Source: Candidatus Micrarchaeota archaeon (GTDB taxonomy: Archaea > Micrarchaeota > Micrarchaeia > Anstonellales > Bilamarchaeaceae). From it: DNA of 64,000 bases. The position numbers and the translations under genes are program-made. The stretch spans positions 158,542-222,541 of the forward strand of contig JBBSVO010000003.1 in assembly GCA_038046805.1 (NCBI GenBank), written 5' to 3'. The notes beneath the pieces were generated by a model. The model worked only from the letters and a program-made list of their open reading frames with translations. It was not told the origin of the DNA and did no database searches. Positions 15,914 to 39,258 of the stretch are shown in pieces. How positions within the stretch are numbered: position 1 is the stretch's first letter; each line of letters begins with the position of its first letter.

Positions 15914-17518
15914 TTAGGATTTTTTGAAGTTGAATATATTTACCCTTAGATTCTTGTTTTTCTCAAGACCGGATATGGCCCATGCCAACAAAACTTTCTT
16001 AGTTTCTAAATACCTCCCTTTTCCTACCTCCACATTACCTATAGCGTATCTCTTGTTGCGTGTATTGAAACAAAACATAGATTCGTGCACATTCTCGCAG
16101 TTATGGCAGAAATAGCAGTCAGTGCAGTTGTTTGAATGGTCAACCTCAAAACAGCGGGTTATTCTGGTTGAGAAATGAGAGTTTATAGAAAACTGCGCGT
16201 ACCGCACTTCCCTGCATCCAAAACAGTACTCGGAATTTCGTGGGCAAAAGCAAAAGGCGCACAAACGGGACCACATGTTCTGGATACCATGATAACAATC
16301 AGAGGCATCAATAACCAGCGGGCAATCAATGTTATTTTGAAGCTTGCCTGCGAGCCAGAACGGGCAGAAATAAGCAATCTTGGAGATTATTGTTGCCGCA
16401 TTCTCAAGCGCTAAATGAGTTACTTCATCTTCGCTGAGTAAAAGCTTTTCTCCGAAGAAATACGCCTCATCCTGCATAAGCAGCCTATTCCTTGGAAAAT
16501 CAAGGAAACTGGCAAAATCAGGTAACAAAAGTGCCTTTCCAGATGCACAGGACTTTTCTTTGTCCAACCGGATACTGGAGGCATCTGAAAGCCATTCGGA
16601 ATAATCATCTAATCTTTCAAGTGGCTTTCCAAACAAAATGCCAGTTGTCTGGGAAAACGCCTTTTCTATTCCGCCTTTTTCCGTATTTTTAGGTTGCACT
16701 GGTGGCAACTTTGGCGCAGCGGCTACCAGATAGGAATAGTCTGGTTTTTCCTTTTCAACCAGCTCTGTTATGAATGGGAGCCTCTTGTCTTTTTTCAGCC
16801 TTTCTCTGATTTCGGCAAGCAACTTGTCCTTGAGGGAATAATATTTATCTTTTGAAAGCGAAAGGTTTCCTATTACATACCTCTTTGATTTTAGGTTGAA
16901 CGAAAACATACACTCCATGCAGCTTGAAAGACCGTGTGAATAGAAACAATCTGAAGAGAAATCTGCTTTTGAAGTCATAAAACAACGCGTTGATTCGCTG
17001 ATCTCATTTGATTTGATTGAAAAGGAGGATGGACCAAACGCATAACAACCAAAAATATTTTCGCTATAGCTTCCGCGCGTAGAGTATGCAACATTCTTTG
17101 AAAACGCAACCCTCTCGGAATGCAGGACATAATGACATTCGGTTATCGTAGTACTTTGATCAATAAAACTGGAATTTCCGAGGATTATGTTGCCAGTGTA
17201 TGCAATGCGCTCCCCGAGGATGGAGAGGATTGAATCTATGTCTTTTACCTCATCTATGCCCAGCGAATCCGTTTTTCTGTTGAAATCGATCTCGTCGTAG
17301 CCAACAAAATTGAAATCGCGGGCGTAATTAGTGCTTGCACAGATCACTTCTTTTCCGGAAACATGTGATTTTTTAACAAGGCGCGGTCCGTTCCCTTCGT
17401 ATAACCATTTGGCATAATCATCCAAGTCTCCGACTTGCTCTCCAAGAAGAATTTTGCATGTAGACTGCCATTGTTTATTCAGGTTAGCATACAGGCCTGG
17501 ATCCGTGCTTGAAGGCAT
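15914..17518 (-). CDS. Internally duplicated Cys-rich hypothetical protein; paralog of 45996-47603
   Basis: Two halves, each with LxGxxxxxLDDYxxWL and a C-x2-C-xF(S/C)FN-x3-KRYxIGN ending. Confidence 0.8.
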   Translation of the reverse strand: MPSSTDPGLYANLNKQWQSTCKILLGEQVGDLDDYAKWLYEGNGPRLVKKSHVSGKEVICASTNYARDFNFVGYDEIDFNRKTDSLGIDEVKDIDSILSILGERIAYTGNIILGNSSFIDQSTTITECHYVLHSERVAFSKNVAYSTRGSYSENIFGCYAFGPSSFSIKSNEISESTRCFMTSKADFSSDCFYSHGLSSCMECMFSFNLKSKRYVIGNLSLSKDKYYSLKDKLLAEIRERLKKDKRLPFITELVEKEKPDYSYLVAAAPKLPPVQPKNTEKGGIEKAFSQTTGILFGKPLERLDDYSEWLSDASSIRLDKEKSCASGKALLLPDFASFLDFPRNRLLMQDEAYFFGEKLLLSEDEVTHLALENAATIISKIAYFCPFWLAGKLQNNIDCPLVIDASDCYHGIQNMWSRLCAFCFCPRNSEYCFGCREVRYAQFSINSHFSTRITRCFEVDHSNNCTDCYFCHNCENVHESMFCFNTRNKRYAIGNVEVGKGRYLETKKVLLAWAISGLEKNKNLRVNIFNFKKS

Positions 17519-17543
17519 AATCCATAATACTCGCTCAACAGTT

Positions 17544-18767
17544 TTAAGGATGGGGGTTCTCTACAGTGTGATTATCCGCCACCGTAAACTTCAGTAAAAC
17601 CAGCGCAAACAGCGTCGTAGCAATCGCAAATACAAACGATGCATTTGTACCGAACAGGCTTTGCTCCCATAGTAATCCTGCAATAAGATTTGATGGGAGG
17701 GCCAGGATTCCTGCCACTGCACCATACAAACCGATTGCACTGCCATATTTTGATTCATCAAACGTTCTGGTAATGAAAACCTTGGGTGCAGTTTCAATTA
17801 TTGCCATGAAGACTCCTAGAATAGCAAGCGAGAGGAATGCAGACCAGATAAATGGATAGAATGCCATAAGGGCAATGCTCATTGCAAAAAGAGCAAAACT
17901 CGCCAAAATCGCGTTTTTTGCTCCGAATTTGTCAGAAAGATACCCTGCAGGAACTGCAAAAATCGTATAGAACAGGTTATATGCCAAATAAATAATCGGA
18001 ATCATAATCAACCCAACGATTGGATTTGCTTTAAGAAGAAAGAATGCCACGCTGAACTGCCCCAGAGTAAAAATGCCGATTGCGACAAGGAACATTTTGT
18101 AATTTTTGATGGATAACAGCGCAGAAAAAGAAAACTTGTACCCATCTCCTATTCCGTCTTTTTTGTCCTTTACGAAAAATATCAACGCAACTGCAATAAT
18201 TGCAGGAATAAATGAGATAGCAAAAATGTTCCGGTATGCTGCACCAATTCCGTCTCCTGTAAAAAACAGGATAAGAAGTGCAGAAGCAAGAAGTGGCCCA
18301 ATTGTGGCACCGGAAGAATCCATCATCTTAAGATAACCAAATGCACGGCCGAGATTTTCCTTTTTCTCGGACTGGGCAAGAAGAGAGTCGCGTGGTGCGT
18401 TGCGAATTCCTTTTCCAAGCCTGTCTAGGAATCTAAGAGCAACAACATGCTGCCAAATCGCAGCAAAGAAAAGAGCGCCTTTTGAAAGAGATGACAACAG
18501 ATAACCTGCCAACATGGGCATTTTCCGTTTTCCTATTCTGTCCGAGTATACCCCGGCAATAAAACGCGAAACACCCGCAACGAATTCCCCTATGCTTTCC
18601 ATGAATCCCAATACAAATACAGGGGCACCAAGAACACCTGTAAGGAAGAACGGGAGAAGTGGGAATATCATCTCGCTGCTTACATCGGTGAGAAAACTAA
18701 TCGCACCGAAGAGTTTCGTATTTTTGCTTAAAGGAGGAAAAAGTTTTAGACCTGAAGGCACATGCAT
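17544..18767 (-). CDS. Major facilitator superfamily transporter
   Basis: ~12 TM helices, SDRIGKRK and SDKFGAK loops, DVSSEMIFPLLP. Confidence 0.92.
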   Translation of the reverse strand: MHVPSGLKLFPPLSKNTKLFGAISFLTDVSSEMIFPLLPFFLTGVLGAPVFVLGFMESIGEFVAGVSRFIAGVYSDRIGKRKMPMLAGYLLSSLSKGALFFAAIWQHVVALRFLDRLGKGIRNAPRDSLLAQSEKKENLGRAFGYLKMMDSSGATIGPLLASALLILFFTGDGIGAAYRNIFAISFIPAIIAVALIFFVKDKKDGIGDGYKFSFSALLSIKNYKMFLVAIGIFTLGQFSVAFFLLKANPIVGLIMIPIIYLAYNLFYTIFAVPAGYLSDKFGAKNAILASFALFAMSIALMAFYPFIWSAFLSLAILGVFMAIIETAPKVFITRTFDESKYGSAIGLYGAVAGILALPSNLIAGLLWEQSLFGTNASFVFAIATTLFALVLLKFTVADNHTVENPHP

Positions 18768-26282: not shown

Positions 26283-27770
26283 GTGGAAATTTACAACTCT
26301 TTGAGTAGAAAACTGGATTCGCTTGGCACGGGCGACGGAAAGGAACCAAACCTTATGTACGTCTGCGGGCTTACGCCATACGACCAAACACATATAGGAC
26401 ATGCAAGAACCTGTGCTGCGTTTGACACTGTGAAACGATATCTAAAACTGCGTGGCCACACGGTTTTTCATATCCAGAACATAACGGATGTTGAGGATAA
26501 AATAATAAATCGCTGCAAACAAACTGGCGCAGACCCGAAGAAACTGACTACTGAAGTTCACGAGGATGCATTACGACTTTTTGATAAACTTTCCATAATT
26601 CGGGCAGATGAATACCCAAAAGTAACTGAACATATCCCAGAGATAATAAAAATAATAAAACAGATAATGGAATGTGGTTATGCCTATGAAACAAAAACCG
26701 GAATTTACTTCGATGTTTCAAAATTCAAGAATTATGGTGCGCTCTCTGGACAGAAAATGGATGAGATATTAGCTGGTTCGCGAAAGGAAGTGGATGAAAC
26801 AAAAGACGACCCCTCGGATTTCGCACTATGGAAAAAAACAGATGGAGAACTTATTGAATTTGACTCCCCGTGGGGCAGAGGACGACCGGGGTGGCATATT
26901 GAATGCAGTGCAATGAGCCTAAAGTACGCGCGGGGCAAAGGAAAAACGACTATTGATATTCACGGTGGGGCGAGAGATTTGATATTTCCGCACCATGAAA
27001 ACGAAATTGCGCAGAGCGAGGCGGCAACAGGAAAAAAATTCGCAAGATTGTGGATGCACACTGGATTTTTGACCGTGGATGGGGAAAAGATGAGCAAGAG
27101 CCTTGGTAATTTTATCACCGTAGAAACTGCTCTTAATATGTTTGAACCGAATGCACTGCGCATGTTTTTTGCAATGACGCATTACAGAAGCCCGATAGAT
27201 TATAACGAGGATGCGATAAGGGCAGCAGGCGAGAGCGCGGAAAGGCTGCTCACCGCAAGCGGATTGATGGCAGAATCGGAAAAAGATGCGGAAAAGAAAA
27301 ATAAGAAAGATTCCGAATTCCGCAAGGAAACGGATAGGCTGCTAAAGGAATTCCATGAACATATGGAAAATGATTTTGATACTCCGAACGCGCTCGCGGC
27401 ATTGTTCAATTTCGTAAGGATTACAAACTCGCATTGTAATCAGGGGGAGGTTGACAAAATCCAGTTGAAGAAAATTAGTAAGGAACTTACCGCAGATATT
27501 TCCATTTTTGGGATTGTAGAAAGAATCTCTGAAGGAATTGAGGATAAAAAAGATGCATTGGTGGAAATTGCAGCCAGGTATCCTGAACAGGAGAAAGAAA
27601 AACTTGTCAGCAAAACCGCGGAACAACTTATTGAACTTATTTTAGAAATTCGAGACAATGCAAGGAAAAAGAAGCAGTTCGCTGTATCTGATGAAATAAG
27701 AAAAAGGCTCACCAGTATAGGCATTACGCTGGAAGACTCTGCAAAAGGACAAAAATGGAAGACAACGTAA
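26283..27770 (+). CDS. cysS: Cysteine--tRNA ligase
   Basis: HIGH, GRPGWHIECSAM, FPHHENE, KMSKS. Confidence 0.97.
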   Translation: MEIYNSLSRKLDSLGTGDGKEPNLMYVCGLTPYDQTHIGHARTCAAFDTVKRYLKLRGHTVFHIQNITDVEDKIINRCKQTGADPKKLTTEVHEDALRLFDKLSIIRADEYPKVTEHIPEIIKIIKQIMECGYAYETKTGIYFDVSKFKNYGALSGQKMDEILAGSRKEVDETKDDPSDFALWKKTDGELIEFDSPWGRGRPGWHIECSAMSLKYARGKGKTTIDIHGGARDLIFPHHENEIAQSEAATGKKFARLWMHTGFLTVDGEKMSKSLGNFITVETALNMFEPNALRMFFAMTHYRSPIDYNEDAIRAAGESAERLLTASGLMAESEKDAEKKNKKDSEFRKETDRLLKEFHEHMENDFDTPNALAALFNFVRITNSHCNQGEVDKIQLKKISKELTADISIFGIVERISEGIEDKKDALVEIAARYPEQEKEKLVSKTAEQLIELILEIRDNARKKKQFAVSDEIRKRLTSIGITLEDSAKGQKWKTT

Positions 27771-27816
27771 CAGAATAACGTAACAAGACAACGTAACGTA
27801 TCGAAAGTATCAACCG

Positions 27817-27873
27817 TTACAAAAACAGTAAGCCTTTTAAATAGAACCTAATTAACCATTACTACTTTTGTAA
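27817..27873 (+). promoter_or_regulatory. Putative promoter of the copper operon: TATA box between two inverted TTAC-N7-GTAA sites
   Basis: TTACAAAAACAGTAA (27817-27831) and TTACTACTTTTGTAA (27859-27873) match 13/15 as inverted copies; TTTTAAATA at 27835-27843. Confidence 0.6.
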
Positions 27874-27956
27874 AAGTTAAATGAAAAATTTATGATTGCG
27901 AGGTTTGTGTGGTTGCGACCACAAAACCATCAAACAAAATTTGAGGTGTATGAAAA

Positions 27957-28760
27957 ATGGCTGAGAAACCTGAAGAAAAAAAGAATGAAACGAAAATTGA
28001 GGAAACAACCCAACCACAGATTCCAATTCACTTTTACGTGATGCTCGGACTTTTGGTAGTTGTGCTTGCGTTCAACCAGTTTCAGATAATGGGACTTAGC
28101 TCGCAGATTGCTGCTCTTGGCAGTGTAGCTGCATCAACAGGCGGAAGCGCGTCTGGAGGTTCGTCTTCATCCGGAAGCAGTTCAAGCGGAACGGGTTCAT
28201 CTGCTGAACTAAGCGCAGAGCAGGTTTGGGAGAAGATAAAGCCAAGCGGAGTCCCTCCGGTTTACGGAAAGGAGCTTGGGGTAAACTATGATGACACGGT
28301 TGGCGCGCTTGGAAAGCTCGCTGCACTTGATGATAGCATTACATATAGCAGCCTTAATGAAAAGGCAAAAACAAGATACCTGAAAATCGGGTTTGCAATT
28401 GCATGTGAATACTGCTGTGGCGCAAAGTCGCTCATATTCTCAAATGGAGAAAAGGCATGTGGATGCCAGCACTCATATGCAATGAGAGGAATTGCCAAGT
28501 ATATCCTGAAGAACTATCCTGAAGAATTCACGGATGACCAGATAGTGGAGGAACTCGCCAAATGGAAGATGACATACTTCCCGAAGCAGCACATATCTAA
28601 GGCAATGGAATTCATGAAAGCAGGAATGCCGCTTAACGCGATGGATCTTGCCAGCCAGAAATACCGTGGATTCAAGGCATCAACAGCAAGCTCTTCTGGT
28701 AGCGGAGCAGCAACAGGTAGTGGGGCATCAAGCCTTCCGAACATGGTTGGGGGATGCTAA
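27957..28760 (+). CDS. Membrane-anchored Cys-motif protein (CEYCC...CGCQH; CcmH-like pattern) ending in SLPNMVGGC
   Basis: GAGGTG RBS; one TM helix; Gly/Ser linkers on both sides of the Cys domain. Confidence 0.8.
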   Translation: MAEKPEEKKNETKIEETTQPQIPIHFYVMLGLLVVVLAFNQFQIMGLSSQIAALGSVAASTGGSASGGSSSSGSSSSGTGSSAELSAEQVWEKIKPSGVPPVYGKELGVNYDDTVGALGKLAALDDSITYSSLNEKAKTRYLKIGFAIACEYCCGAKSLIFSNGEKACGCQHSYAMRGIAKYILKNYPEEFTDDQIVEELAKWKMTYFPKQHISKAMEFMKAGMPLNAMDLASQKYRGFKASTASSSGSGAATGSGASSLPNMVGGC

Positions 28761-28805
28761 GCTTGTTTCACGTTTTGAGTCTAGTGTCTAGGCGATGGTG
28801 AAATT

Positions 28806-28922
28806 ATGCCGTTTTGCAAAAACTGTGGAAAAAGGTTTATGGCATGCTGTGGAGACGAAGATGAGCACTGCAACGAGTGCATGAAATCTTCGGACACGGG
28901 GAAAAAAGAGGGCAATAATTGA
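28806..28922 (+). CDS. 38-aa Cys-rich peptide (not in ORF track)
   Basis: GGTGA RBS; MPFCKNCGKRFMACCGDEDEHCNECMKSSDTGKKEGNN; paralog of 30683-30805. Confidence 0.75.
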   Translation: MPFCKNCGKRFMACCGDEDEHCNECMKSSDTGKKEGNN

Positions 28923-28951
28923 AATTGAATGAAATATTTGGGGTGGAAAAT

Positions 28952-29188
28952 ATGGCAGTTGACAAGATGATGTTGCTGACAATAATCGTCGGCGTATTGG
29001 TCGTAGTGGCATTGTTCCAGGCACTTCAGCTTGGGAAGACATCTGGAGAACTATCTGCAAAGAAGCTTGCAGTCGGTTCGGCCAGCAGCTCGGGTGGGGC
29101 ATCAGCAGCACCTTCTTCAGGTTCCGGGGCAGGCAGTGCTTCAGGCGCAGGAGTTGCAAGTCTTCCAAGCATGGTTGGAGGATGCTAA
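28952..29188 (+). CDS. Small membrane-anchored protein with Gly/Ser/Ala linker ending in SLPSMVGGC
   Basis: GGGGTGG RBS; one TM helix; same C-terminus as 27957-28760. Confidence 0.8.
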   Translation: MAVDKMMLLTIIVGVLVVVALFQALQLGKTSGELSAKKLAVGSASSSGGASAAPSSGSGAGSASGAGVASLPSMVGGC

Positions 29189-29260
29189 ATTTCTTCTTTT
29201 TTTTATTTTTTATTTAATTTATCCGTACAAAGCAACAACAAGTAAGTGTATGGTGAATAT

Positions 29261-29890
29261 ATGGCAAACAATCTGACTGGGATATTCTTCATTTTCGTTC
29301 TTTCATCGCTCATTTTCGCGCACTCTATGGAGGACTGGAAGATCATAATATACAAAAGCGCGGGGTGCGGGCATTGTGTTCCGTATCTTGAGGGCTTAAT
29401 GGACGAATTGACAAAAGCCGGCGTAAAGGACATACAAAACAAGGAATTTCTGGGAAATGAACAGGTACGGGTGGAACTTGCGAACCTTCAAGATAAGGTC
29501 GGAGTGCCGCTAAATTTGCAGGGGCACTTAGTAGTATCAATAGATGATGGTTCTGGATCCGGATACGCATTGTTTGAAGGCCATGTCCCACCAAAACTTA
29601 TTGTGGATTTTCTGGCAAATGACCATGAACGCCAGCATAAAGGAACAGTAGTCACGCAGGATGCGATGGATCTTTCCACGGTAAAGGAGTATTTCCATTT
29701 CAAGGACGGAATAACCAAAACGTGCGGAATAAATGAAAAAATAATTGATTGCGAGAAACAAGAGTCTCCAGCTTCCGGTGGTTCGACAGCCTCGTTTGAA
29801 TGGACTTCCATTTTGATACCAGTGCTTATCGTCATAGTTCCAATGGCGCTTATCTGGAAACTCTGGAAAGAAGAGAAAAAAAGCAGTTAG
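29261..29890 (+). CDS. DUF411/CopG-like thioredoxin-fold protein with signal peptide and C-terminal TM anchor
   Basis: IYKSAGCGHC and GYALFEGHVP match the DUF411 pattern YKSxxCGCC...GYxxEGHVP. Confidence 0.7.
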   Translation: MANNLTGIFFIFVLSSLIFAHSMEDWKIIIYKSAGCGHCVPYLEGLMDELTKAGVKDIQNKEFLGNEQVRVELANLQDKVGVPLNLQGHLVVSIDDGSGSGYALFEGHVPPKLIVDFLANDHERQHKGTVVTQDAMDLSTVKEYFHFKDGITKTCGINEKIIDCEKQESPASGGSTASFEWTSILIPVLIVIVPMALIWKLWKEEKKSS

Positions 29891-29902
29891 ATTGGTGTTT
29901 TG

Positions 29903-30658
29903 ATGGAACCATCCGAATCCCTTAAAATCAAGATAGGCCTGGTTGGGCTGTTTCTAGTGCTTGTAATCGTAGCGCTAACATCCAGCAACGCAAATATTCT
30001 TCCGCTCGTGATATCAACCGGTTTCCTTGATGGAATCCACCCGTGCGGATTCGCAGTATTGTTGTTTTTCATAGCATTTCTTCTTTCAATCAAAAGAAGC
30101 CGCGGAGAAATAATGCTGATGGGCGGGCTATATATATTCGGAGTGTTTGCCGCATATCTGCTCATAGGATTGGGAATAATACAGGCGATAACTGTGTTCC
30201 CGCCGCATTTCATGGCAAAGGCAGGTTCTGTTCTTCTGATATTCATAGGCATAGTGAACATATTTGACGCATTCACCGGAAAACAGACCTTGAAAATCCC
30301 GAAATTCTCCAAACCATTCATACAGAAGACAATTGAGAATGCAACCATGCCATCAGCGCTTATTGCCGGATTTATAGTCGGCTTGTGCGCGTTTCCGTGC
30401 GCAGGAGGAATTTATGTTGCGATTCTTGGGCTTATCGCAACGAAAATGGCAACGCTCGAAGGTTTCGCATACTTGATTATCTATAATGTGATGTTTGTAA
30501 TGCCACTCATAATCATGCTGGCACTGTCGTCAAACGAGAACGTTGTGGAGAAATTAGAAGAGGCAGAACGTACGAACAGGAAATTCTTCAAGATTGTTTT
30601 GGGGATATTGATGATAGCACTTGCCATATTCCTTTTGTTTGGAAATCTTCTGGTATAG
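29903..30658 (+). CDS. CcdA/DsbD-beta family transmembrane thiol-redox protein
   Basis: GFLDGIHPCGFAVL and CAFPCAGGIY; ~7 TM helices. Confidence 0.82.
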   Translation: MEPSESLKIKIGLVGLFLVLVIVALTSSNANILPLVISTGFLDGIHPCGFAVLLFFIAFLLSIKRSRGEIMLMGGLYIFGVFAAYLLIGLGIIQAITVFPPHFMAKAGSVLLIFIGIVNIFDAFTGKQTLKIPKFSKPFIQKTIENATMPSALIAGFIVGLCAFPCAGGIYVAILGLIATKMATLEGFAYLIIYNVMFVMPLIIMLALSSNENVVEKLEEAERTNRKFFKIVLGILMIALAIFLLFGNLLV

Positions 30659-30682
30659 GACTGAGTCAAATAAAGTGAGATT

Positions 30683-30805
30683 ATGAAATGCAAGAAATGC
30701 CAAAAATTGTTCCTGCGATGTTGTGAAGGGGATGAACATTGCCTGGATTGCACACGGGAAATAGTAAAGGAGAAAATGAAGATGGCCGGAGAAAAGGGCA
30801 ATTAG
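30683..30805 (+). CDS. 40-aa Cys-rich peptide (not in ORF track)
   Basis: MKCKKCQKLFLRCCEGDEHCLDCTREIVKEKMKMAGEKGN; paralog of 28806-28922; fills the intergenic gap. Confidence 0.75.
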   Translation: MKCKKCQKLFLRCCEGDEHCLDCTREIVKEKMKMAGEKGN

Positions 30806-30818
30806 GGGTGATAAACAA

Positions 30819-31280
30819 ATGGTTCAAAACGAAAAAATACTTGGCAGCGCAAACGCGATAAGTGGCGGACTTGGGATTATAAGCGCGCACAATCTGTGCC
30901 ATAATGTATGCCTTGGCGCGATCGCATTTATAGGGGCATTCGGACTGACTGTTGATGGAATGCCGCTGGCGTTTCTTGCAGAGTACAACACACTATTTTG
31001 GGGAATGGCAGCATTCTTTCTTGTAATAAGCCTTGCACTCCATGCGACGAAAAAGGCGTGCTTTTCACAGAAGACTGTTTTGTTCAATGCTGGAATCGTG
31101 GTCGCAGGAGTTCCGTTCGGAGAGGTGGCACCAATTCACCCGCTTCTCTGGTTTGCTGGCGGGGCGATGGTAGTTGTGGCAATCGCCATGTTTGTTAAGG
31201 AAAAACTGGACGAACGGGCGGGCAAAAACGAAAAAACCGGGAAAACAAATCAAACGAAAAAATGCGAACAATGCGCATAA
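30819..31280 (+). CDS. Membrane protein with HNLCHNVC motif and C-terminal CEQC
   Basis: GGGGTGA RBS; ~4 hydrophobic segments; putative metal ligands. Confidence 0.75.
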   Translation: MVQNEKILGSANAISGGLGIISAHNLCHNVCLGAIAFIGAFGLTVDGMPLAFLAEYNTLFWGMAAFFLVISLALHATKKACFSQKTVLFNAGIVVAGVPFGEVAPIHPLLWFAGGAMVVVAIAMFVKEKLDERAGKNEKTGKTNQTKKCEQCA

Positions 31281-31296
31281 AGTTACGGGTGTTGAA

Positions 31297-31641
31297 ATGA
31301 CTGAAACGAAAAACGAGAGGTATATTTTATACGGAATCGGAATTATCGCTGTTTTGATGCTCGGATGGGTTTTTTATGGATTCGTCTCCCCTCCGCAGCC
31401 TGCGCAATATCAGGCAAATGGTGCGGGTGCGACACATGCAACCTTTTCCCAATCCGGCAGTGGGGTTGATGACGAATGCGGAGATATTACCGATGCAAGC
31501 AATGTTCAGCATTTGGGGCATCATCCGGACCAGTTTGCGAACTGCCTGAAAAAAGTAAATCCGCAATTACTCAAACAGGCAACCGGAAAAACGCTGGATG
31601 AGCTTCTTGGCGGATCAACAGATATGTCTAGTATGCATTGA
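31297..31641 (+). CDS. Single-TM protein with C...QHLGHHP...C motif and MSSMH tail
   Basis: GGGTG RBS before ATG 31297; one TM helix; His/Cys/Met-rich soluble part. Confidence 0.7.
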   Translation: MTETKNERYILYGIGIIAVLMLGWVFYGFVSPPQPAQYQANGAGATHATFSQSGSGVDDECGDITDASNVQHLGHHPDQFANCLKKVNPQLLKQATGKTLDELLGGSTDMSSMH

Positions 31642-31678
31642 TTGATCAATTCATGGACTAAACAATCGCAGTGAGTAG

Positions 31679-32320
31679 ATGACACTTATATATAAGGTGT
31701 ATATGGCCATTACGGCATTAGTTGCATTGTGGATTATTGCGACTCCGGTTCTTGCACATGCCAATAGCGAATTTTATCCGCAGTTATACAAGCTTGGGGA
31801 ACCAATCTGCCATCAGAAGATATCACGATCTTTTTGCCTGTTCAAGGATACGAACGCAGGCGGAATTGCATGGAGTGTTGGGGATTGTACACCACAAAAT
31901 GGAATCATGCGTGAGGACCTAAGAAGCGAGGTATGCGCTGATGGAAACGGAAAAATCGGGAAGGTTGGAAATTGTTCCGCACTCGGTGCAGATGGTGCAA
32001 AGATTGGATATAAATTTCCGGTAAGCGCACGGGATATTACGATTTATCTGGGCGCGTTTGTTGGGGGAATTGCGATGTTTGCCCTGAAGCGGCACGATAA
32101 AAAGGAGATTCTTCCTGCAATTTGGCTTATTCTTGCAATTGTTCCGATTGGAATTGACGGCACCGGGCAGCTTCTTGGATTCTGGGAAAGCACAAACTTA
32201 ATAAGGGCGATTACAGGAGGAATTGTTGGAATCGCAATAGCGGTTTATATGATCCCGATTCTTAACAAAATATTCGGCGGCAACAGAATGCCAGAAGGTC
32301 AATCACATGAAAAAACTTGA
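31679..32320 (+). CDS. DUF2085-like membrane protein
   Basis: ICHQKISRSF, FPVSARD, IDGTGQLLGFWESTNLIRAITG. Confidence 0.8.
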   Translation: MTLIYKVYMAITALVALWIIATPVLAHANSEFYPQLYKLGEPICHQKISRSFCLFKDTNAGGIAWSVGDCTPQNGIMREDLRSEVCADGNGKIGKVGNCSALGADGAKIGYKFPVSARDITIYLGAFVGGIAMFALKRHDKKEILPAIWLILAIVPIGIDGTGQLLGFWESTNLIRAITGGIVGIAIAVYMIPILNKIFGGNRMPEGQSHEKT

Positions 32321-34823
32321 ATTTCGCATAAAGGGAATGCATTGCGCTTCTTGCGCCGTGAACCTGGAGCGGGCGCTAGGCAAAAAAAGCGGAATAAAAA
32401 ATGCAAACGTGAGTTATGCGCTGGAAAAGGCAGTGGTTGAATTTGACGAGTTAAAGATAAATGCGGAAGATATAGCAGATATTGTTGAAAAACAGGGATA
32501 CCGCGCGGAAATGAAAAAAGAGAACGTGGAATCACAGGAAGAAACTAAAAAATCCGAAACTGAAACGTTCCGCGTGGAAGGAATGGGCTCTCCCCATTGC
32601 GTGAACATTGTAACAAATGCACTGAAGCGTGTGAATGGCGTCTCGAATATAAAGGCCGATTTTTCAACCGAACGCGTAACAGTAACGTTTGAGCCTCCCG
32701 CAGATTTCCTGAAAATGAAAAAAGCTGTTGAAGATGCAGGATATGGATTTTCCGAGATGGCCGCGAAAGCAAAGGCCCAAACCAAAAATCCAACAGAAAG
32801 TCCAGAAGATACTGAACGAAGGGAACGCGATGCGGAGATTATAGGATACCGCAATAAGTTCGCAATCTCGATGCTGTTTAGTCTTCCATTATTATTTATG
32901 TTTTTCAGGCACAGTGGAATACTTTCGTTTGCTCTTCCTGAATTTCTTGAAACAAACAACATGCTTGCACAGTTCATACTCGCAAGCACAGTTGTGATTG
33001 TGAATGGAGACACGTTCATACGGGGTTTTCGCGCGCTTTTAATAAACAGAATGCCGACCATGGATTCCCTTGTGGCAATAGGGGTTGGTGTGGCATACCT
33101 GTTCAGCGTGGCCGTATCTTTTGGTGCAATAGAAAGCACGGACCTTTATTATGAAGTTGGCGCACTTGTCATCACGTTTATAGTTCTTGGAAGATGGCTT
33201 GAGGCAAAGGCAAAGGGAAGAACTTCCGAAGCAATAAAAAAACTAATGGGTCTTCAGCCAAAAACCGCGAGGATAATACGCAACGGCAACGAAATGGAAA
33301 TACGAATTGCAAATGTGGCGGTCGGAGATATTGTTGTAATCCGCCCTGGCGAAAAAATACCGGTCGATGGCGAAGTGACAGAAGGAGAATCCGCGGTTGA
33401 CGAAAAAATGATAACTGGCGAACCAATCCCTGTAATGAAAAGAAAGAGCAGTATTGTTATTGGTGGAACAATAAACAAACACGGGACATTCATGTTCAAG
33501 GCAACTAAGGTCGGAAAGGACACGATGCTATCACAGATAATAAAGCTGGTGGAAGACGCGCAGATGAGCAAGGCACCGATTCAGGAACTTGTGGATAAGG
33601 TTTCGGCTTATTTTGTTCCGGTGATAATGCTTGTAGCAATTATTGCGTTCGGATATTGGTATTTTGTTGCCGCGCAAACGTTTGAATTCTCCCTTATTAT
33701 GGCCGTAACAGTTCTTGTGATTGCATGCCCATGTGCACTAGGACTCGCGACGCCAACAGCAGTAATGGTCGGAACAGGCTTGGGGGCAGAACATGGAGTT
33801 CTTTTCAAGACTGCAAAGGCATTGCAGGGAACCGGAAAGATAAACATGATTGTGCTGGATAAAACCGGGACTATAACCAAAGGGGAACCTGAGGTAACCG
33901 ACATAATTACGCTTGCAGAGATGAAACAGATTGACATACTAAAAACTGCAGCATCTGTGGAAAAAGGAAGCGAGCATCCGCTTGCAGAGGCAATCATACG
34001 AGCGGCAAAACAGGAGAAGATAAAACCAGAATCCCTTGAAAAGGCAACAGGATTCACCGCGATTCCAGGATATGGCGTAAGGGCAAAACTCGGGCGGGAC
34101 ACAATTTACATAGGAAACAGAAAACTCATGGAAAAACAGAAAATAGCAATTGACCAGCAAACTGAGGATGAGCTTCAGCGGCTTGAAAACGAAGGAAAAA
34201 CCGCAGTGATTGTTGCAGTAGGAAAATACGCTGTCGGAATAGTCGCAATTGCAGATACGCTAATGGAACATTCAAAGGAAGCAATCGCAGAATTCAAAAA
34301 AATGGGACTTGGAGTTGCAATGATAACCGGGGATAATAGAAGAACCGCAAACGCAATTGCTCGCGATGTTGGAATAGAACCGCAAAACGTTCTCGCCGAG
34401 GTTCTCCCCCAGGACAAAGAAATCAAAGTTTCAGAGCTTCAGAAAAGTGGGAAAAAAGTCGCAATGATCGGTGATGGAATAAACGATGCACCTGCACTGG
34501 CAAAGGCGGATATTGGAATAGCTGTTGGCTCTGGAACAGACATTGCAATGGAAAGCGGGGATGTTGTTCTTGTCAAAAGCGATTTAAGAGACGTGGCAAC
34601 GGCAATTCGCCTTAGCAGGTTTGTAATGGGAAAGATAAAGGAAAATCTGTTTTGGGCATTTGTTTACAACGTAGTTGGAGTTCCAATAGCTGCGGGAATT
34701 CTTTACGGAGCATATGGAATTCTTATAAATCCAGCTCTGGCAGGGCTTGCGATGGCATTTAGTTCAGTTTCTGTCGTAACTAATGCAGGTCTCATGCGGT
34801 TTTTTAAAGATAAACGAGAGTAA
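32307..34823 (+). CDS. copA: Copper-translocating P1B-type ATPase
   Basis: GMHCASC HMA domain, TGE, CPCALGLATP, DKTGT, SEHPL, GDGINDAP, YN...P, MAFSS. Confidence 0.95.
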   Translation: MKKLEFRIKGMHCASCAVNLERALGKKSGIKNANVSYALEKAVVEFDELKINAEDIADIVEKQGYRAEMKKENVESQEETKKSETETFRVEGMGSPHCVNIVTNALKRVNGVSNIKADFSTERVTVTFEPPADFLKMKKAVEDAGYGFSEMAAKAKAQTKNPTESPEDTERRERDAEIIGYRNKFAISMLFSLPLLFMFFRHSGILSFALPEFLETNNMLAQFILASTVVIVNGDTFIRGFRALLINRMPTMDSLVAIGVGVAYLFSVAVSFGAIESTDLYYEVGALVITFIVLGRWLEAKAKGRTSEAIKKLMGLQPKTARIIRNGNEMEIRIANVAVGDIVVIRPGEKIPVDGEVTEGESAVDEKMITGEPIPVMKRKSSIVIGGTINKHGTFMFKATKVGKDTMLSQIIKLVEDAQMSKAPIQELVDKVSAYFVPVIMLVAIIAFGYWYFVAAQTFEFSLIMAVTVLVIACPCALGLATPTAVMVGTGLGAEHGVLFKTAKALQGTGKINMIVLDKTGTITKGEPEVTDIITLAEMKQIDILKTAASVEKGSEHPLAEAIIRAAKQEKIKPESLEKATGFTAIPGYGVRAKLGRDTIYIGNRKLMEKQKIAIDQQTEDELQRLENEGKTAVIVAVGKYAVGIVAIADTLMEHSKEAIAEFKKMGLGVAMITGDNRRTANAIARDVGIEPQNVLAEVLPQDKEIKVSELQKSGKKVAMIGDGINDAPALAKADIGIAVGSGTDIAMESGDVVLVKSDLRDVATAIRLSRFVMGKIKENLFWAFVYNVVGVPIAAGILYGAYGILINPALAGLAMAFSSVSVVTNAGLMRFFKDKRE

Positions 34824-34829
34824 CAAATT

Positions 34830-37451
34830 ATGCCAGAAGGAATTGCGACAAGCGCGGAGGGAGTCCATTCGAAAACCTCCAAAGATGTAATTTCCAAACT
34901 TGCCACAAACGAGGATACTGGGATAACCACAGACGAGGCTGCCGCAAGGCTGTCAAAATACGGGCTTAACCTAATCTCTGGAAAGCACAAAAGAACTGCA
35001 TTGGATATAATTATAGAACAGCTCAAAAATATCGTATTGATTCTTCTTATAGCTGCATCAATTGTCTCATACTTTACAGGGCACGTGCTGGACGCAATCG
35101 CAATAGCTGCGGCTGTAATCATAAGCGTAATATTCGGCTTCATGTTAGAATATAAAGCAGACCAAAGCCTGCGTGCGCTTCAAGAGCTCGTTTCGCCAAA
35201 GGCACTCGTCACGCGCGGCGGAAAGCATATTACAATAGATGCGGCACATTTGGTTCCTGGAGATATTTTAACAATTGAAGAAGGGGCAAAGGTTCCTGCA
35301 GACTGTCGCATAATCGAAGAGTATGGGTTTGAAGTAAATGAAGCGCCACTTACTGGCGAATCGGTTTCTGTTGTAAAAACAATGAACACGTCTGACAAAA
35401 ACGCTCCTTTATCGGAAAGAACTTGTATGATTTATGCTGGAACCCTTGTAGTGAAAGGACACGCAAAATGCATCGTCGTTGCTACAGGAGACGAAACCGA
35501 AATCGGAAAAATTGCATCAACATTAAGCGGAATAGAAAGCGAAGAAACGCCACTCAAGAAATCGCTTGACGAGCTTGGGAAGCGCATAAGCCTGGCCGGA
35601 ATAGCAGTTATACTTCTTTTTTTCATTATCGGAACACTGAACGGCATGGATCCGTCATTCCTGTTCATATTGGGCATATCACTTGCAGTAGCCGTAGTGC
35701 CTGAAGGCCTGATCACCGTGCTCACGATTATCCTGGCAAATGGGGTTCGCACAATGGCAGAAAACAAGGCACTGGTACGAAGAATGAATGTAGTTGAAAC
35801 CATTGGAAATACTTCTGTCATTGTGGTTGATAAAACCGGAACTATTACTGAAGGAAAAATGTCACTTGTGGAAATTTTCTCTGATGGTGAAAATATAAGC
35901 ATATCAGAAGTGCCAGAAGATAACAAAACCCTGAAATATGCATCGATGTGCAACATGGCAAAAATCACTGAAAAAGGAATTGTTGGAGATGAAATGGACC
36001 GCGCAATACTTCATGCGGCACAGCTTCGTGGGTTTGACATACATGCGCTGAAAAGCACCAAGCCGGTCCTGATAAAGCCTCTTGATTCTGTGAAAAAGCA
36101 GATGTCATGCGCATACGAACAAAGCGGAACAGGAAAATTCATTTCCATAGTAAAAGGCGCTCCGGAGATAGTCTTGTCACAGTGCACGCATATAACGGAG
36201 AATGGAACTGAAAAACGGCTAAATAATGACCAGAAAAAAAATCTGGAAAAAGAACTTGCACGAATGACTGGAACCGGGAGACGCGTTCTTGCAGTTGCAT
36301 GTAAAGAATTAGATAACATAAAAGAAACGAGCGAAAAATCAGCTGAAAGCAATCTCACATTTATAGGTCTTCTTGGATTTAGCGACAGACTGAGAGAAGA
36401 AGTTGAGGGAACTCTCGCAACGTTCCGCAATGCGGGAATACGTGTGATGATGCTAACCGGAGATAACTTACGAACTGCGATTTCTATAGGAAAGGAATGC
36501 GGACTGATAGATAATGAAAAGGAAGCTGTGGAATGGAAAGAACTCGAGGGTAAAGGAGATAATGAACTAAAAGAACTCCTGCGCGGGTATAATATAATTG
36601 CACGCTCAACACCGATAAGCAAGCTAAGAATAGTTGAGGCGTTGATTAAGACTGGCGAAATAGTAACTGTAACCGGAGATGGAGTAAATGATGCGTTAGC
36701 GCTCAAAAAAGCGCACGTTGGCGTGGTAATGGGAAGCGGGACCGATGTAAGCAAGGAAGCTGGAAGCCTTATACTCATGGACGACAATATTTCCACGCTT
36801 GCATCTGCGATCAAATATGGAAGAGGCGTGTTTCACAACATAACTAACTTTGTAAGGTTCCAGTTCACAACCAATATCGCTACACTCGGGCTGTTTCTGG
36901 TTACATTCCTAAGCGGACTTCCAAGCCTGTTAACACCAATTCAGATTCTTTTCATAAACATAATCATGGATGGGCCACCTGCACTTGCATTGGGATTTGA
37001 GAAATCCGTGGATAGTGTCATGGACGAAAAACCAAGAAAAAATCATAGCGTGCTGACTCACAAGACACTGACGTCAATATCAATGACTGCAGTATTTATG
37101 ATAATAATAACTTTGCTCGCATATATGTATTTTGAACCGCATGGAAAAAGCACTGCATTAACTGCAACATTCTTCGTGTTTGTTTCAATGCAACTAGCTA
37201 ATTCCCTGAACTGCAGGTTTCACAAAGACCACTTCTTTTCAAAGCCATCTTCTAACCCATACCTGTTTGCCACCATAGTTGTAATGGGACTGGTATTATT
37301 GGTTATGGCATATGTTCCAGAACTGCATGAGATATTCTCGATAATAAACCCAGATAAAAATATTTTATTCGTTGCTGGAATTGCAGGGCTGGGGGTGTTG
37401 TTGTTTGAAGAAATGAAAAAGGCTACGATGACAAGATTGGTGGAGTATTAA
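34830..37451 (+). CDS. Cation-transporting P-type ATPase (P2A, Ca2+-type)
   Basis: TGES, VPEGL, DKTGT, KGAPE, GDGVND, QILFINIIMDGPPALALG. Confidence 0.93.
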   Translation: MPEGIATSAEGVHSKTSKDVISKLATNEDTGITTDEAAARLSKYGLNLISGKHKRTALDIIIEQLKNIVLILLIAASIVSYFTGHVLDAIAIAAAVIISVIFGFMLEYKADQSLRALQELVSPKALVTRGGKHITIDAAHLVPGDILTIEEGAKVPADCRIIEEYGFEVNEAPLTGESVSVVKTMNTSDKNAPLSERTCMIYAGTLVVKGHAKCIVVATGDETEIGKIASTLSGIESEETPLKKSLDELGKRISLAGIAVILLFFIIGTLNGMDPSFLFILGISLAVAVVPEGLITVLTIILANGVRTMAENKALVRRMNVVETIGNTSVIVVDKTGTITEGKMSLVEIFSDGENISISEVPEDNKTLKYASMCNMAKITEKGIVGDEMDRAILHAAQLRGFDIHALKSTKPVLIKPLDSVKKQMSCAYEQSGTGKFISIVKGAPEIVLSQCTHITENGTEKRLNNDQKKNLEKELARMTGTGRRVLAVACKELDNIKETSEKSAESNLTFIGLLGFSDRLREEVEGTLATFRNAGIRVMMLTGDNLRTAISIGKECGLIDNEKEAVEWKELEGKGDNELKELLRGYNIIARSTPISKLRIVEALIKTGEIVTVTGDGVNDALALKKAHVGVVMGSGTDVSKEAGSLILMDDNISTLASAIKYGRGVFHNITNFVRFQFTTNIATLGLFLVTFLSGLPSLLTPIQILFINIIMDGPPALALGFEKSVDSVMDEKPRKNHSVLTHKTLTSISMTAVFMIIITLLAYMYFEPHGKSTALTATFFVFVSMQLANSLNCRFHKDHFFSKPSSNPYLFATIVVMGLVLLVMAYVPELHEIFSIINPDKNILFVAGIAGLGVLLFEEMKKATMTRLVEY

Positions 37452-37515: not shown

Positions 37516-38316
37516 TTACTTTATCCCCAACATCGTCACATTAAATATTAGCGTCTGACCCGCAAGCGGATGATTCTCATCCAGAATTACATTCGTCTCA
37601 TTTATGGAAATAACACGCACGAATTTCTGCATTCCGGCCTTGCTGTCAAACGTAACGTAATCCTTGCCCTCTTCCAAATCGTATTTTATTGTGAATGAAT
37701 TCACGGATTTGTTTGCAACAATCTGGGGGAGGCCATTGAATTTGAATTTTGAACCTACAGGTAGCAGATATTCCAAAGTCGCAGTTTCGTTTGTGAAATT
37801 ATAGATTGAGACTAGCCCGATGTTTGTCTGGAAAACAGAATCGTTCTTTATTTCAACATTTTGCGTCTTCAGCCAGGCCATAGGGACTTCTTCAAACCTC
37901 TCTTTTTCATAATAAAGCGGGATTGAAGTGAGCTTGTTTGGATCAAAAACCCCGTATCCCTTTTCCGGTGGAATTTCTATCTGCCGTTTTCCACCCTCCT
38001 TCATTCCTATTACACCTTCAACGAATCCATCTATTAAGCCTACACCTTTGGTAACCGTAAACTTGAGTGGGAAGTATTTTCTAAGAGGGTCGTATATGCC
38101 AGAGCCTTTGGCAACTGATTCCGAATTGGTGTCATAGACCGTGCCATTTTGGAGGATAAGGGCGTATTCCACTGCAACGGCATCCCCATATTGGACAACC
38201 TTTTCGAATGTAGTATTCTTACCAGGTTCTGGAGGTTTGATATCCGCAGGCTGCCCTATGCACCCGAACAACAGAAAGATTCCAAGGATTAGAATGACAA
38301 AAAGATTGGCTTTCAT
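37516..38316 (-). CDS. FKBP-type peptidyl-prolyl isomerase with lipoprotein-like signal and enlarged insert-in-flap
   Basis: LLFGC, VYDTN, GLIDGF...GMKEG, IPPEKGYG, DENHPLAGQTLIF. Confidence 0.88.
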   Translation of the reverse strand: MKANLFVILILGIFLLFGCIGQPADIKPPEPGKNTTFEKVVQYGDAVAVEYALILQNGTVYDTNSESVAKGSGIYDPLRKYFPLKFTVTKGVGLIDGFVEGVIGMKEGGKRQIEIPPEKGYGVFDPNKLTSIPLYYEKERFEEVPMAWLKTQNVEIKNDSVFQTNIGLVSIYNFTNETATLEYLLPVGSKFKFNGLPQIVANKSVNSFTIKYDLEEGKDYVTFDSKAGMQKFVRVISINETNVILDENHPLAGQTLIFNVTMLGIK

Positions 38317-38368
38317 AAAAAGACATCTCTGCCATTGTTTAAAATTATTTGCCCGCCCAGATAAACTC

Positions 38369-38698
38369 ATGGTTGCCAGGATAGGAATTAATATTAAACA
38401 GACTGTAGTGGTCGCTGCCACTGCAGGAGTAATTGCATTTGCTTCATTACTTCCAAAAATTGCACATGATAATCAACAACGAGATGAAACACGTTCCAGA
38501 TGGATACAAAAACAGATCGTATTCGCAGAAGGATTGCAAAAAAGAACCAGAATACAAGGAACCATAGGACTCGTGGAACGTATTGCAGAAGACGAGACCA
38601 TGAAAGCATCTGCAGGAAAACTGTTTGAAAGGGCAGGGGGATGCAAACACTTCAAAAAAATTGGACCGTTACAAGAAGAACTCGCGGCACAAAAATAA
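38369..38698 (+). CDS. Hypothetical single-TM protein
   Basis: TTTAAAA box upstream of ATG 38369; one hydrophobic helix. Confidence 0.55.
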   Translation: MVARIGINIKQTVVVAATAGVIAFASLLPKIAHDNQQRDETRSRWIQKQIVFAEGLQKRTRIQGTIGLVERIAEDETMKASAGKLFERAGGCKHFKKIGPLQEELAAQK

Positions 38699-39042: not shown

Positions 39043-39258
39043 ATGAACGGTTGTAGAATAATCAGCGGGCTACTGGTATTGGCATCAGGCGCCTCGTTTT
39101 TGGGTCTTGCATATGGAGTACTGGATGCAAAGACAACTTATACCGTGGCCGGTCTTGCACTAGGAATTTTTGGTTTGCACAAATTGCTTGCATGTATGGG
39201 GATTTGCCAATGCTGTAAGGAAGAACAATGCTGCAAAGACGAAAAATGCTGCAAGTAA
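39043..39258 (+). CDS. Small two-TM protein with Cys-rich C-terminal tail
   Basis: GAGGTGA RBS; tail CMGICQCCKEEQCCKDEKCCK; T-run after the stop. Confidence 0.8.
   Translation: MNGCRIISGLLVLASGASFLGLAYGVLDAKTTYTVAGLALGIFGLHKLLACMGICQCCKEEQCCKDEKCCK

Follow-up and report, generated by a model that had tools for sequence, protein, structure and literature searches.

A modular gene island beside copA in a Micrarchaeota genome, possibly a surface defence against copper with a candidate BlaI-type repressor in trans

In the Scs system, a pair formed by a DsbD-family protein and a thioredoxin has been linked to copper tolerance, according to the part of the source drawn on here (PMC10907172). Excerpts of two other papers describe CopG as binding a Cu4 cluster through its CxCC motif and adjacent methionines and CopY as having a C-terminal metal site of the form CxCxxxCxC (PMC7558416), and CcmH as a three-helix thiol oxidoreductase with a single transmembrane segment (PMC3884852). 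The locus lies in a 64,000-nucleotide stretch (hereafter the window; contig JBBSVO010000003.1, positions 158,542 to 222,541) of a Candidatus Micrarchaeota archaeon (GCA_038046805.1). The host genome (G000) is 1.2 Mb in size and 86% complete, and a second genome of the same genus (G294) serves for comparison. At window positions 27957-37451, eleven genes, g1 to g11, lead from an anchored cysteine-cluster protein (g1) to the copper pump CopA (g10) and a P2A ATPase (g11).

A sequence-only reading had described these genes as a tightly packed operon for copper and thiol-redox functions. The gene order and co-orientation are borne out, as all open reading frames (ORFs) lie on the + strand with gaps of -14 to +57 nt, and the ORFs contain the sequence features described, namely the two MVGGC tails, the two six-Cys peptides, QHLGHHP and HNLCHNVC. 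The start of g1 is 186 nt past cysS, and the far end of the cluster meets a convergent FKBP gene (37516-38421, - strand). Homologues of g1 to g10 recur around g1 in related genomes, so the arrangement is not due to chance. The eleven genes are one copy of a modular island that is conserved across DPANN archaea. Pfam and NCBIfam hold no family for g1, g2, g3, g6, g7 and g8; only three products receive a name from these libraries, g9 (DUF2085), g10 (copper P1B ATPase) and g11 (P2A), and the matches of g4 and g5 are sub-threshold. The pump and the CcdA/thioredoxin logic belong to known types, and several of the protein families are unnamed.

In a sample of 301 genomes of the phylum, 26 (~9%) have a g1 homologue; further searches gave 338 cluster representatives at 50% identity and 421 confirmed loci among the GTDB species representatives. 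The relatives belong mainly to Micrarchaeota and other DPANN, and g1 was not found in the viral contigs or plasmids searched. All neighbourhood counts refer to the best 80 of the 421 loci, which are archaeal by record title. This sample favours close relatives, and its loci are often cut by contig ends, 27 being full-length. ORFs were called and clustered, and shadow ORFs overlapping real genes were removed before counting. The core module consists of g1 and the small MVGGC protein g3, together in 78 of the 80 loci; a small ORF ending in [MQ][VI]G[GS]C is missed at L054, which ends just past g1, and at L076, which is full length. A redox trio of Micrarchaeota comprises the Cys peptide, g4 and the CcdA-like g5. 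The counts for single families are 38 loci for g8, 36 for g4, 23 for g5, 12 for g7 and 8 for g9, with a CPC-type P1B ATPase in 26.

Other families recur around g1 and are absent from the window cluster. They include a membrane-anchored helix-turn-helix (HTH) protein (50 of 80 loci), BlaI (33), a BlaI-linked protease (32), DUF5676 (33), a triple thioredoxin (23), a cupredoxin (19), CopZ (18) and PCYCGC (6). Other contigs of the host genome carry a BlaI gene with its protease, the triple thioredoxin, DUF302 and a DsbA-like gene. A separate membrane protein with an HCPLC motif occurs in 32 loci (families of L103:10958-11491 and L108:4307-4819), usually followed by a protein ending in CCKE or CCxxW. 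It never shares a locus with g5 and is therefore possibly an alternative redox module. In the literature searched (DPANN/Patescibacteria copper resistance, PCYCGC/DUF2085/MVGGC and BlaI), no description of the island was found, as judged by titles and abstract openings and with subscription papers and supplements outside its scope.

The link to copper is provided in the first place by g10 (32307-34823, + strand). This protein scores 609 bits against TIGR01511 (cut-off 397) and contains an N-terminal CxxC domain, a second degenerate SxHC domain, and the CPC, DKTGT, YN and MxxS motifs. By these motifs, g10 is a typical P1B-1 Cu(I)/Ag(I)-type pump of the CopA family, and Cu(I) export is predicted. 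In many DPANN CopA proteins, a degenerate GMxSxHC metal-binding domain replaces or follows the CxxC domain. The proposed association of the accessory genes with copA holds in other genomes: at 14 of the 27 full-length loci, a copper-type P1B ATPase lies no more than 10 kb from g1, against an expectation of ~2% calculated for 20-kb stretches taken at random from a genome of 1.1 Mb. The accessory genes also recur beside CopZ, cupredoxin and canonical CopG, and some copper marker is present in 19 of the 27. Among the 26 P1B pumps, 18 show the YN motif of transmembrane helix 7; the other 8, mostly cut at the locus end, are not scored by the pattern. In the 301-genome sample, a CopA-like gene is present in 25 of the 26 g1-bearing genomes and in 161 of the 275 others, and in 14 of those 25 the CopA and g1 places are at most 20 kb apart on one contig.

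The last gene, g11 (34830-37451, + strand), had been counted as part of the unit, a view that does not survive the comparison, since a P2A ATPase is found in 2 of the 80 loci; it has been rejected as an island member on this ground. P2A also follows copA in G294 and is rare elsewhere, and it is probably a bystander, a lineage-specific hitch-hiker. The assignment to the P2A, PMR1/SPCA type is based on the PEGL and DKTGT motifs, the cation-ATPase N and C domains, and the motif INIIMDGPPA in transmembrane helix 6, which we take to be of the SPCA type. TIGR01522 is the best model, with 626 bits, under its cut-off of 798.

The promoter region of g1 contains two copies of the palindrome TTAC-N7-GTAA, a feature absent from the sequence-only reading. 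Box 1 (27817-27831) is located just upstream of a TATA-box-like sequence (TTTTAAATA; 27835-27843, + strand), and box 2 (27859-27873) covers the expected transcription start. The TATA-like sequence is conserved in G294, and its role is presumed from sequence and position. With a matrix derived from other genomes, box 2 is the top-ranked and box 1 the fifth-ranked site genome-wide; a site before the genome's own BlaI gene ranks fourth, ranks 2 and 3 are unexplained, and the other high-scoring operator-like sites in the genome show no clear regulon member. The genome holds 19 TTAC-N7-GTAA sites, one of them 49 nt before this BlaI gene. Two boxes in the window gap arise in 1 of 20,000 shuffles. 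In G294, box 2 is identical and box 1 is kept with one spacer change. Both boxes there precede an extra Met/His-rich SHOCT-family gene (L112:609-1202) between promoter and g1, which the host genome does not have.

Repressors of the BlaI/MecI family recognise palindromes of the TACA/TGTA type and are removed by cleavage, as in BlaR1/BlaI. Where a BlaI gene is divergent from g1, the intergenic gap has TTACA-N5-TGTAA, often twice around the TATA box. TTAC-N7-GTAA is present in 23 of 24 promoters with an adjacent BlaI gene, in 5 of 9 whose BlaI gene lies farther off in the locus, and in 1 of 45 at loci that lack BlaI; the count excludes two loci, and the background is 0.02 per equal stretch. Because the motif was derived from BlaI-adjacent promoters, the informative contrast is the 1 of 45. 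The two window boxes are likely, as candidates from sequence, the binding sites of the BlaI-type repressor encoded in trans at G000:C1:58371-58781. This gene is followed by a membrane protease of the M48/M56 type with a C-x6-C loop (pair at G000:C1:58371-59524; L110:8378-9528), with an operator box upstream. A PF03965 repressor beside an HExxH membrane protease together with a palindromic operator is the make-up of BlaI/BlaR1 pairs; the 247-residue protease gives M48/M56 matches only, and a penicillin-binding sensor domain is absent from it. The island's triple-thioredoxin gene is 3 kb from the regulator pair, at C1:54392-55549.

Of the 32 proteases encoded at the loci, 31 contain HExxH, the remaining one being truncated, and 26 have a Cys pair in their loop region. 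BlaI or the membrane HTH protein is present in 74 loci and both in 9, and 44 of 58 HTH proteins have an N-terminal Cys pair. Both candidate regulators are thus associated with membrane proteins that have predicted outer cysteines, which suggests that the signal is sensed at the surface. With a concrete set of repressor, operator and sensor, the inducing signal of the island becomes directly testable. A short GC-containing hairpin in the g1 leader (27900-27930) has a single copy in the genome and is conserved in G294, where two more are found; its stability is no better than that of shuffles (z -0.73).

The g1 protein (27957-28760, + strand), which matches no known family, has an N-terminal anchor, a Ser/Gly linker modelled at low confidence, a helical domain, a second linker and the MVGGC end. 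Four basic residues precede the anchor and none follow it. The predicted local distance difference test (pLDDT) value is >90 across residues 91-240, the helical domain. Past a disordered linker it climbs to 79 in the tail, which may therefore pack against the cysteine cluster. Its cysteine cluster reads C150-x-x-C153-C154 ... C168-x-C170-x-H172, and these six residues are invariant in 59 aligned sequences; the cluster is present in 194 of 197 fetched homologues and the terminal Cys in 175 of 197. The partner g3 (28952-29188, + strand) is a 78-residue protein made of a membrane anchor, a flexible linker and the MVGGC tail, and its V-G-G-C end is invariant in 57 aligned sequences. That nearly every product carries Cys, His or Met ligands is true in part: Cys makes up only 1.1-3.3% of the larger accessory proteins, and particular Cys and His residues are invariant. 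The evidence for a ligand role is this invariance rather than abundance. The notion that all outer components are membrane-tethered also stands in part, since anchors are predicted for g1, g3, g4, g8 and g9 and the Cys peptides have neither signal nor anchor.

In both fold searches with the g1 model, CcmH ranks first among the compact matches. Foldseek gives an E-value of 2.2, a probability of 0.54 and a template-modelling score of 0.57 on the target, and VIA gives a Z-score of 5.5 (next row 4.0) with a root-mean-square deviation of 3.2 over 77 aligned residues, which is in the range of common arrangements. With such a score and no significance at the sequence level, the CcmH-like fold of the g1 model is only a lead. 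The protein has no LRCxxC motif, no PF03918 match and no ccm context. A profile comparison of g1 with PCYCGC was not above shuffles, a sequence search of the PDB gave no match for g1, and in the ESM Atlas g1 and g8 match only unnamed clusters with scores <0.9. Several proteins with a g1-type domain have been noted in passing. The domain is fused to a CPxC membrane domain, in a MerT-like layout, in L052:4073-5311, L063:19453-20793, L109:15777-16985, P0189 and P0109. In P0134 the fusion partner is an FKBP domain, and the gene convergent with the window cluster is also of the FKBP type. An exported family of 320-410 residues with a CC-x-NPT-x-FPDCNH motif (L104:10221-11222 and 8 other loci) has no Pfam match and is weakly related to g1 (hhalign E 3e-4).

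The exported protein g4 (29261-29890, + strand) is a CopG/DUF411-derived thioredoxin-like protein with a CGHC site and a C-terminal anchor. Its own match to DUF411 is weak (E 0.028, 14.6 bits, cut-off 27), and a PDB sequence search found nothing for g4 alone. At the family level, 18 of 19 members match PF04214 at E<=0.1, and the family profile matches PDB 6wis at E 2e-4 with CxxC and EGHVP in register. The family splits into canonical CopG (CGCC, SCH, PGMP; 15 genes that occupy the slot of g4, with E 1e-21 to 6wis) and a variant of 23 genes, the window's included, with CxHC and QGH, a C-terminal anchor and no Met motif. The variant is followed directly by g5 in 23 of 23 cases, the window included, and in the 301-genome sample all 16 strong variant matches are within 2.5 kb of g1. 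The earlier suggestion of a CopG-like copper protein fails for the copper cluster, since C-x-H-C is invariant and PGMP absent in 23 of 23. Because the cluster ligands CxCC and Met are lost, g4 is homologous to CopG and not a member of it, and true CopG has been rejected. In g4 one can trace how a copper-cluster protein, CopG, became what is probably a disulfide reductase served by its own CcdA.

The CcdA/DsbD-beta-like membrane electron carrier g5 (29900-30658, + strand) has 252 residues that consist of the transmembrane domain only, with seven predicted transmembrane segments, where CcdA/DsbD-beta proteins have about six. Its two PC motifs, HPC49 and FPC167, are found in 24 of 24 family members; PF02683 (DsbD_TM) is matched at E 4e-4 with 20.2 bits, under the gathering score of 27.1, and no PDB match was found by sequence. 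The paralogous six-Cys peptides g2 (38 residues, CxxC-x6-CC-x6-CxxC; 28806-28922, + strand) and g6 (40 residues, immediately 3' of g5; 30683-30805, + strand) are predicted to be cytoplasmic. Of 89 loci, 22 encode such a peptide, and each of these also has g5. The coupling is partly explained by shared descent, since all peptide-bearing loci belong to Micrarchaeota or unassigned archaea. No cytoplasmic thioredoxin or glutaredoxin was found in the 86%-complete genome, which makes the peptides candidate electron donors of g5; a TrxR-like gene is present, below the cut-off.

Two further membrane proteins match no known family. The protein g7 (30819-31280, + strand) has 3-4 transmembrane segments and 330 homologues, and its C27 and C31 are invariant within a predicted helix (residues 6-45), a Cys pair in the first membrane helix as in MerT/MerC/MerF. 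The HNxCHxxC motif described earlier is correct for its second half: C27-H28-x-x-C31 is invariant, and the leading HN is usually WQ in 105 homologues. The model of g7 has a pLDDT of 75 and gives generic helical matches only. Heme binding has been rejected because the motif is CHxxC and not CxxCH. A related CCxHH membrane family is found in 29 of 80 loci, never beside g7. The membrane-anchored mini-domain g8 (C...H-x-x-HHP...C; 31297-31641, + strand) follows a g7 or CCxHH-family gene in 25 of 39 cases. The DUF2085 membrane protein g9 (PF09858, E 5e-18; 31679-32320, + strand) is an occasional island member, which was also found in 3 of 11 further stretches. A paralogue of g9 outside the island (G000:C6:93160-93699) has PVCSRD where island g9 has PVSARD, so that Ser replaces the second Cys; this Cys tends to be missing from other island copies too.

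Based on these observations, we propose with a probability of about 0.55 that the island beside CopA is a surface defence against copper, in which tethered Cys/His proteins bind Cu(I) and oxidised thiols are re-reduced. The scheme starts from the observed genes and motifs, their conservation and coupling in modules, the two boxes and the regulator encoded in trans. To these it adds, conditionally, a topology, an inducing signal, metal binding, a path for electrons and a function of the arms. The membrane metalloprotease, with HExxH and a Cys pair in its predicted outer loop, would detect outside copper or thiol oxidation and cut the BlaI-type repressor, which would free the two boxes at the g1 promoter. 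CopA would pump Cu(I) outward, as expected from its family and motifs. The five-Cys/His cluster of g1 and the g8 protein may then hold Cu(I), and g1 and g3 could use the terminal Cys of their flexible MVGGC tails as swinging arms between membrane-bound partners, with copper or mixed disulfides as cargo. By analogy with ScsB/ScsC and CcdA/ResA, g5 would shuttle electrons through the membrane to g4, whose CGHC site may in turn act on disulfides of g1, g3, g8 and further surface proteins by reduction or isomerisation. In the cytoplasm, the trio is likely completed by the six-Cys peptides, either as a copper buffer or as the electron donor of g5, and g7, g9 and the P2A pump would be accessory.

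Several observations weigh against this copper defence. The topology has been predicted from hydropathy and charge only. The neighbourhood counts are overstated, as kin are non-independent samples. Only 25 of the 186 CopA-bearing genomes have g1; this reverse association is weak, and the island is therefore an add-on to CopA. A P1B pump is absent within 10 kb in 13 of the 27 full-length loci, and 8 of the 27 have no copper marker at all. None of the 33 repressors has two Cys in its last 40 residues, so that a C-terminal metal site of the CopY type was not found. The lack of a detected cytoplasmic thioredoxin or glutaredoxin is also unfavourable. The earlier idea that a CcdA-like protein keeps the whole conserved system reduced is contradicted by the counts, as g5-type CcdA occurs in a minority of loci (23 of 80). 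The CcmH likeness of g1 is weak, since in hhalign the CxxC is in register, yet the score is not above shuffles. Generic stress genes (DsbA-like, peroxiredoxin, hemerythrin, cysteine desulfurase and short-chain dehydrogenase/reductase) are also found in the neighbourhood.

A rival that we regard as a minority possibility is a general regulon for envelope thiol redox or oxidative stress. Here, g1 (as a CcmH-like thiol oxidoreductase), g3, g4 and g5 would form a disulfide repair chain, the sensor would read thiol oxidation, and copA would be one co-regulated client. The first rank of CcmH in both structure searches with g1, the register of its CxxC, the CGHC site of g4, the recurrence of DsbA-like, triple-thioredoxin, peroxiredoxin and hemerythrin genes and the loci without a copper marker all agree with it. 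However, the annotated neighbours are mostly copper-specific (P1B-1 pump, CopZ, cupredoxin, canonical CopG and YHS), and the five Cys and one His of g1 and the His-His of g8 exceed what a two-Cys redox site needs. Delivery of copper is less likely still. The tethered proteins would keep the Cu(I) exported by CopA reduced and pass it to surface cupredoxins in the manner of Sco, PCuAC or TlpA. A cupredoxin gene in 19 of 80 loci, a fusion of a heavy-metal-associated domain, DsbD and cupredoxin at L080 and the tethered arms would fit such a hand-over, but the host genome has no good match to the island cupredoxin family (best E 9e-4), and a repressor released by stress suits defence better than supply.

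Uptake and detoxification of another soft metal (Hg, Ag or As) in the manner of Mer, with outer Cys proteins as scavengers and g7 passing the metal inward, appears improbable. A transitive link connects g7 to Cys-pair membrane families (hhalign 59%, 99% and 93%), three members of which match MerT models weakly (E 0.024-0.56), and in several genomes such a Cys-pair membrane domain is fused to g1. On the other hand, g7 itself matches no Mer model (0 of 13 members in Pfam and 0 of 5 g7-family proteins in NCBIfam), no ORF of the 80 loci has a MerA motif, and the pumps bear Cu(I)/Ag(I) motifs. A sulfur carrier of the SoxY type or a cytochrome c maturation system is the least probable of the explanations and very unlikely. 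The terminal GGC arm resembles the swinging-arm cysteine of SoxY in the part of its description used here (PMC5336275), and the CcdA-like and CcmH-like parts resemble Ccm/Ccs systems as far as the excerpted account goes (PMC3884852). The CcmH, CcmC/CcmF/CcsA, SoxY and SoxZ families were not found in the 86%-complete genome and none recur near g1; both roles have been rejected.

Within the preferred reading of a copper defence, a bolder version is tentatively advanced, which we consider rather unlikely as a whole: a new type of surface copper system for one-membrane cells without a periplasm. In this version, Cu(I) leaving CopA would be passed by the MVGGC arms to a new protein with a multi-Cys cluster and a CcmH-like scaffold. 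A CopG turned thioredoxin, fed by a CcdA from six-Cys peptides that replace the cytoplasmic thioredoxin, would reset the arms and the cluster, and a proteolytic sensor of the BlaR/BlaI type with a copper-detecting outer cysteine loop would switch the whole system on. Within the literature searched, no description of BlaR/BlaI-type proteolytic signalling for metals was found. DPANN genomes are very small, and the retention of a multi-gene island by about 9% of those sampled from the phylum suggests that these archaea are under real pressure from copper or thiol stress at the cell surface. The island brings at least five families that are unmatched in Pfam and NCBIfam (g1, g3, the Cys peptide, g7 and g8), each with invariant ligands.

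Some features of the transcription unit and its surroundings remain to be described. Start codons at 28952 for g3 and 29261 for g4 are likelier than those first assumed, as they combine ATG with a motif like a ribosome-binding site. A T-rich tract directly 3' of g3 (29189-29223, + strand) is a candidate archaeal terminator, and a T-run within 45 nt past the stop is found in 38 of 87 g3-family genes, compared with 3/23 to 9/30 in six other families. Because of this tract, there may be a short g1-g3 transcript with read-through instead of one uniform operon. A scan of the region for bacterial promoters and terminators gave chance level only, and one RNA run is thin over the region, covers the flanking genes too and is uninformative on expression. 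Short imperfect AACGTAAC repeats (27764-27800) span the cysS stop and are absent from G294. A 71-residue protein of no known family, with two transmembrane segments and a Cys-rich tail (CMGICQCCKEEQCCKDEKCCK), is encoded 1.6 kb past the cluster (39043-39258). Several ORFs of 300-560 residues on contigs C2, C3 and C6 of the host genome share a C-x-D-C-Y-F-C-H-N-C motif and form a repeated Cys-rich family; one is at about 15917-17560 of the window, - strand.

Compared with known systems, the island shares single elements with several of them. As in SoxY, a conserved Cys closes a flexible ...GGC arm, but g1 and g3 have neither the SoxY fold nor SoxZ, their Cys is the last residue and they are membrane-anchored. 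The N-terminal domain of CcmH (PF03918; PDB 2hl7) is a helical bundle with a single transmembrane anchor and a CxxC after the first helix, a layout that g1 may share; g1 differs in lacking sequence significance and LRCxxC, in having three more Cys and a His, an extra N-terminal subdomain and the MVGGC tail, and a heme lyase was not found in the genome. BlaR1/BlaI and MecR1/MecI have the same PF03965 repressor adjoining an M56/M48 HExxH protease and a palindrome at their own and the target promoter, whereas the island's pair is archaeal, its 247-residue protease has a loop Cys pair instead of the penicillin-binding sensor domain, and its operator spacing is TTACA-N5-TGTAA. Unlike CopY, the island repressor has no C-terminal metal motif. 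The pump g10 is an ordinary member of copZ-copA efflux operons, to which the island adds nine accessory genes, mostly predicted to face outward, and the cluster has no cytoplasmic sensor of the CueR, CsoR or CopY type. To CopG (DUF411, PF04214; PDB 6wis and 6wje), g4 is tied by its profile match to 6wis and by canonical CopG in the same slot, and it departs from CopG with CGHC for CxCC, QGH for SCH, no PGMPxGSPGM Met motif and an added C-terminal transmembrane anchor.

The most instructive comparison is with ScsB/ScsC/ScsD of Proteobacteria. The Scs account describes the same combination of a DsbD-family carrier and an exported CxxC protein of the thioredoxin fold; that pair is associated with copper stress and controlled by an envelope-stress sensor, and the island is likened to Scs on this basis (PMC10907172). 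On the other hand, g5 lacks the alpha and gamma domains of ScsB, g4 is derived from CopG and not from DsbG/ScsC, and control would lie with the BlaI/protease pair instead of CpxRA. Moreover, Scs contains nothing equivalent to g1, g3, g7, g8 or the peptides, and the island cluster includes copA. By this analogy, the island is likely Scs-like in its working and not a member of the Scs family.

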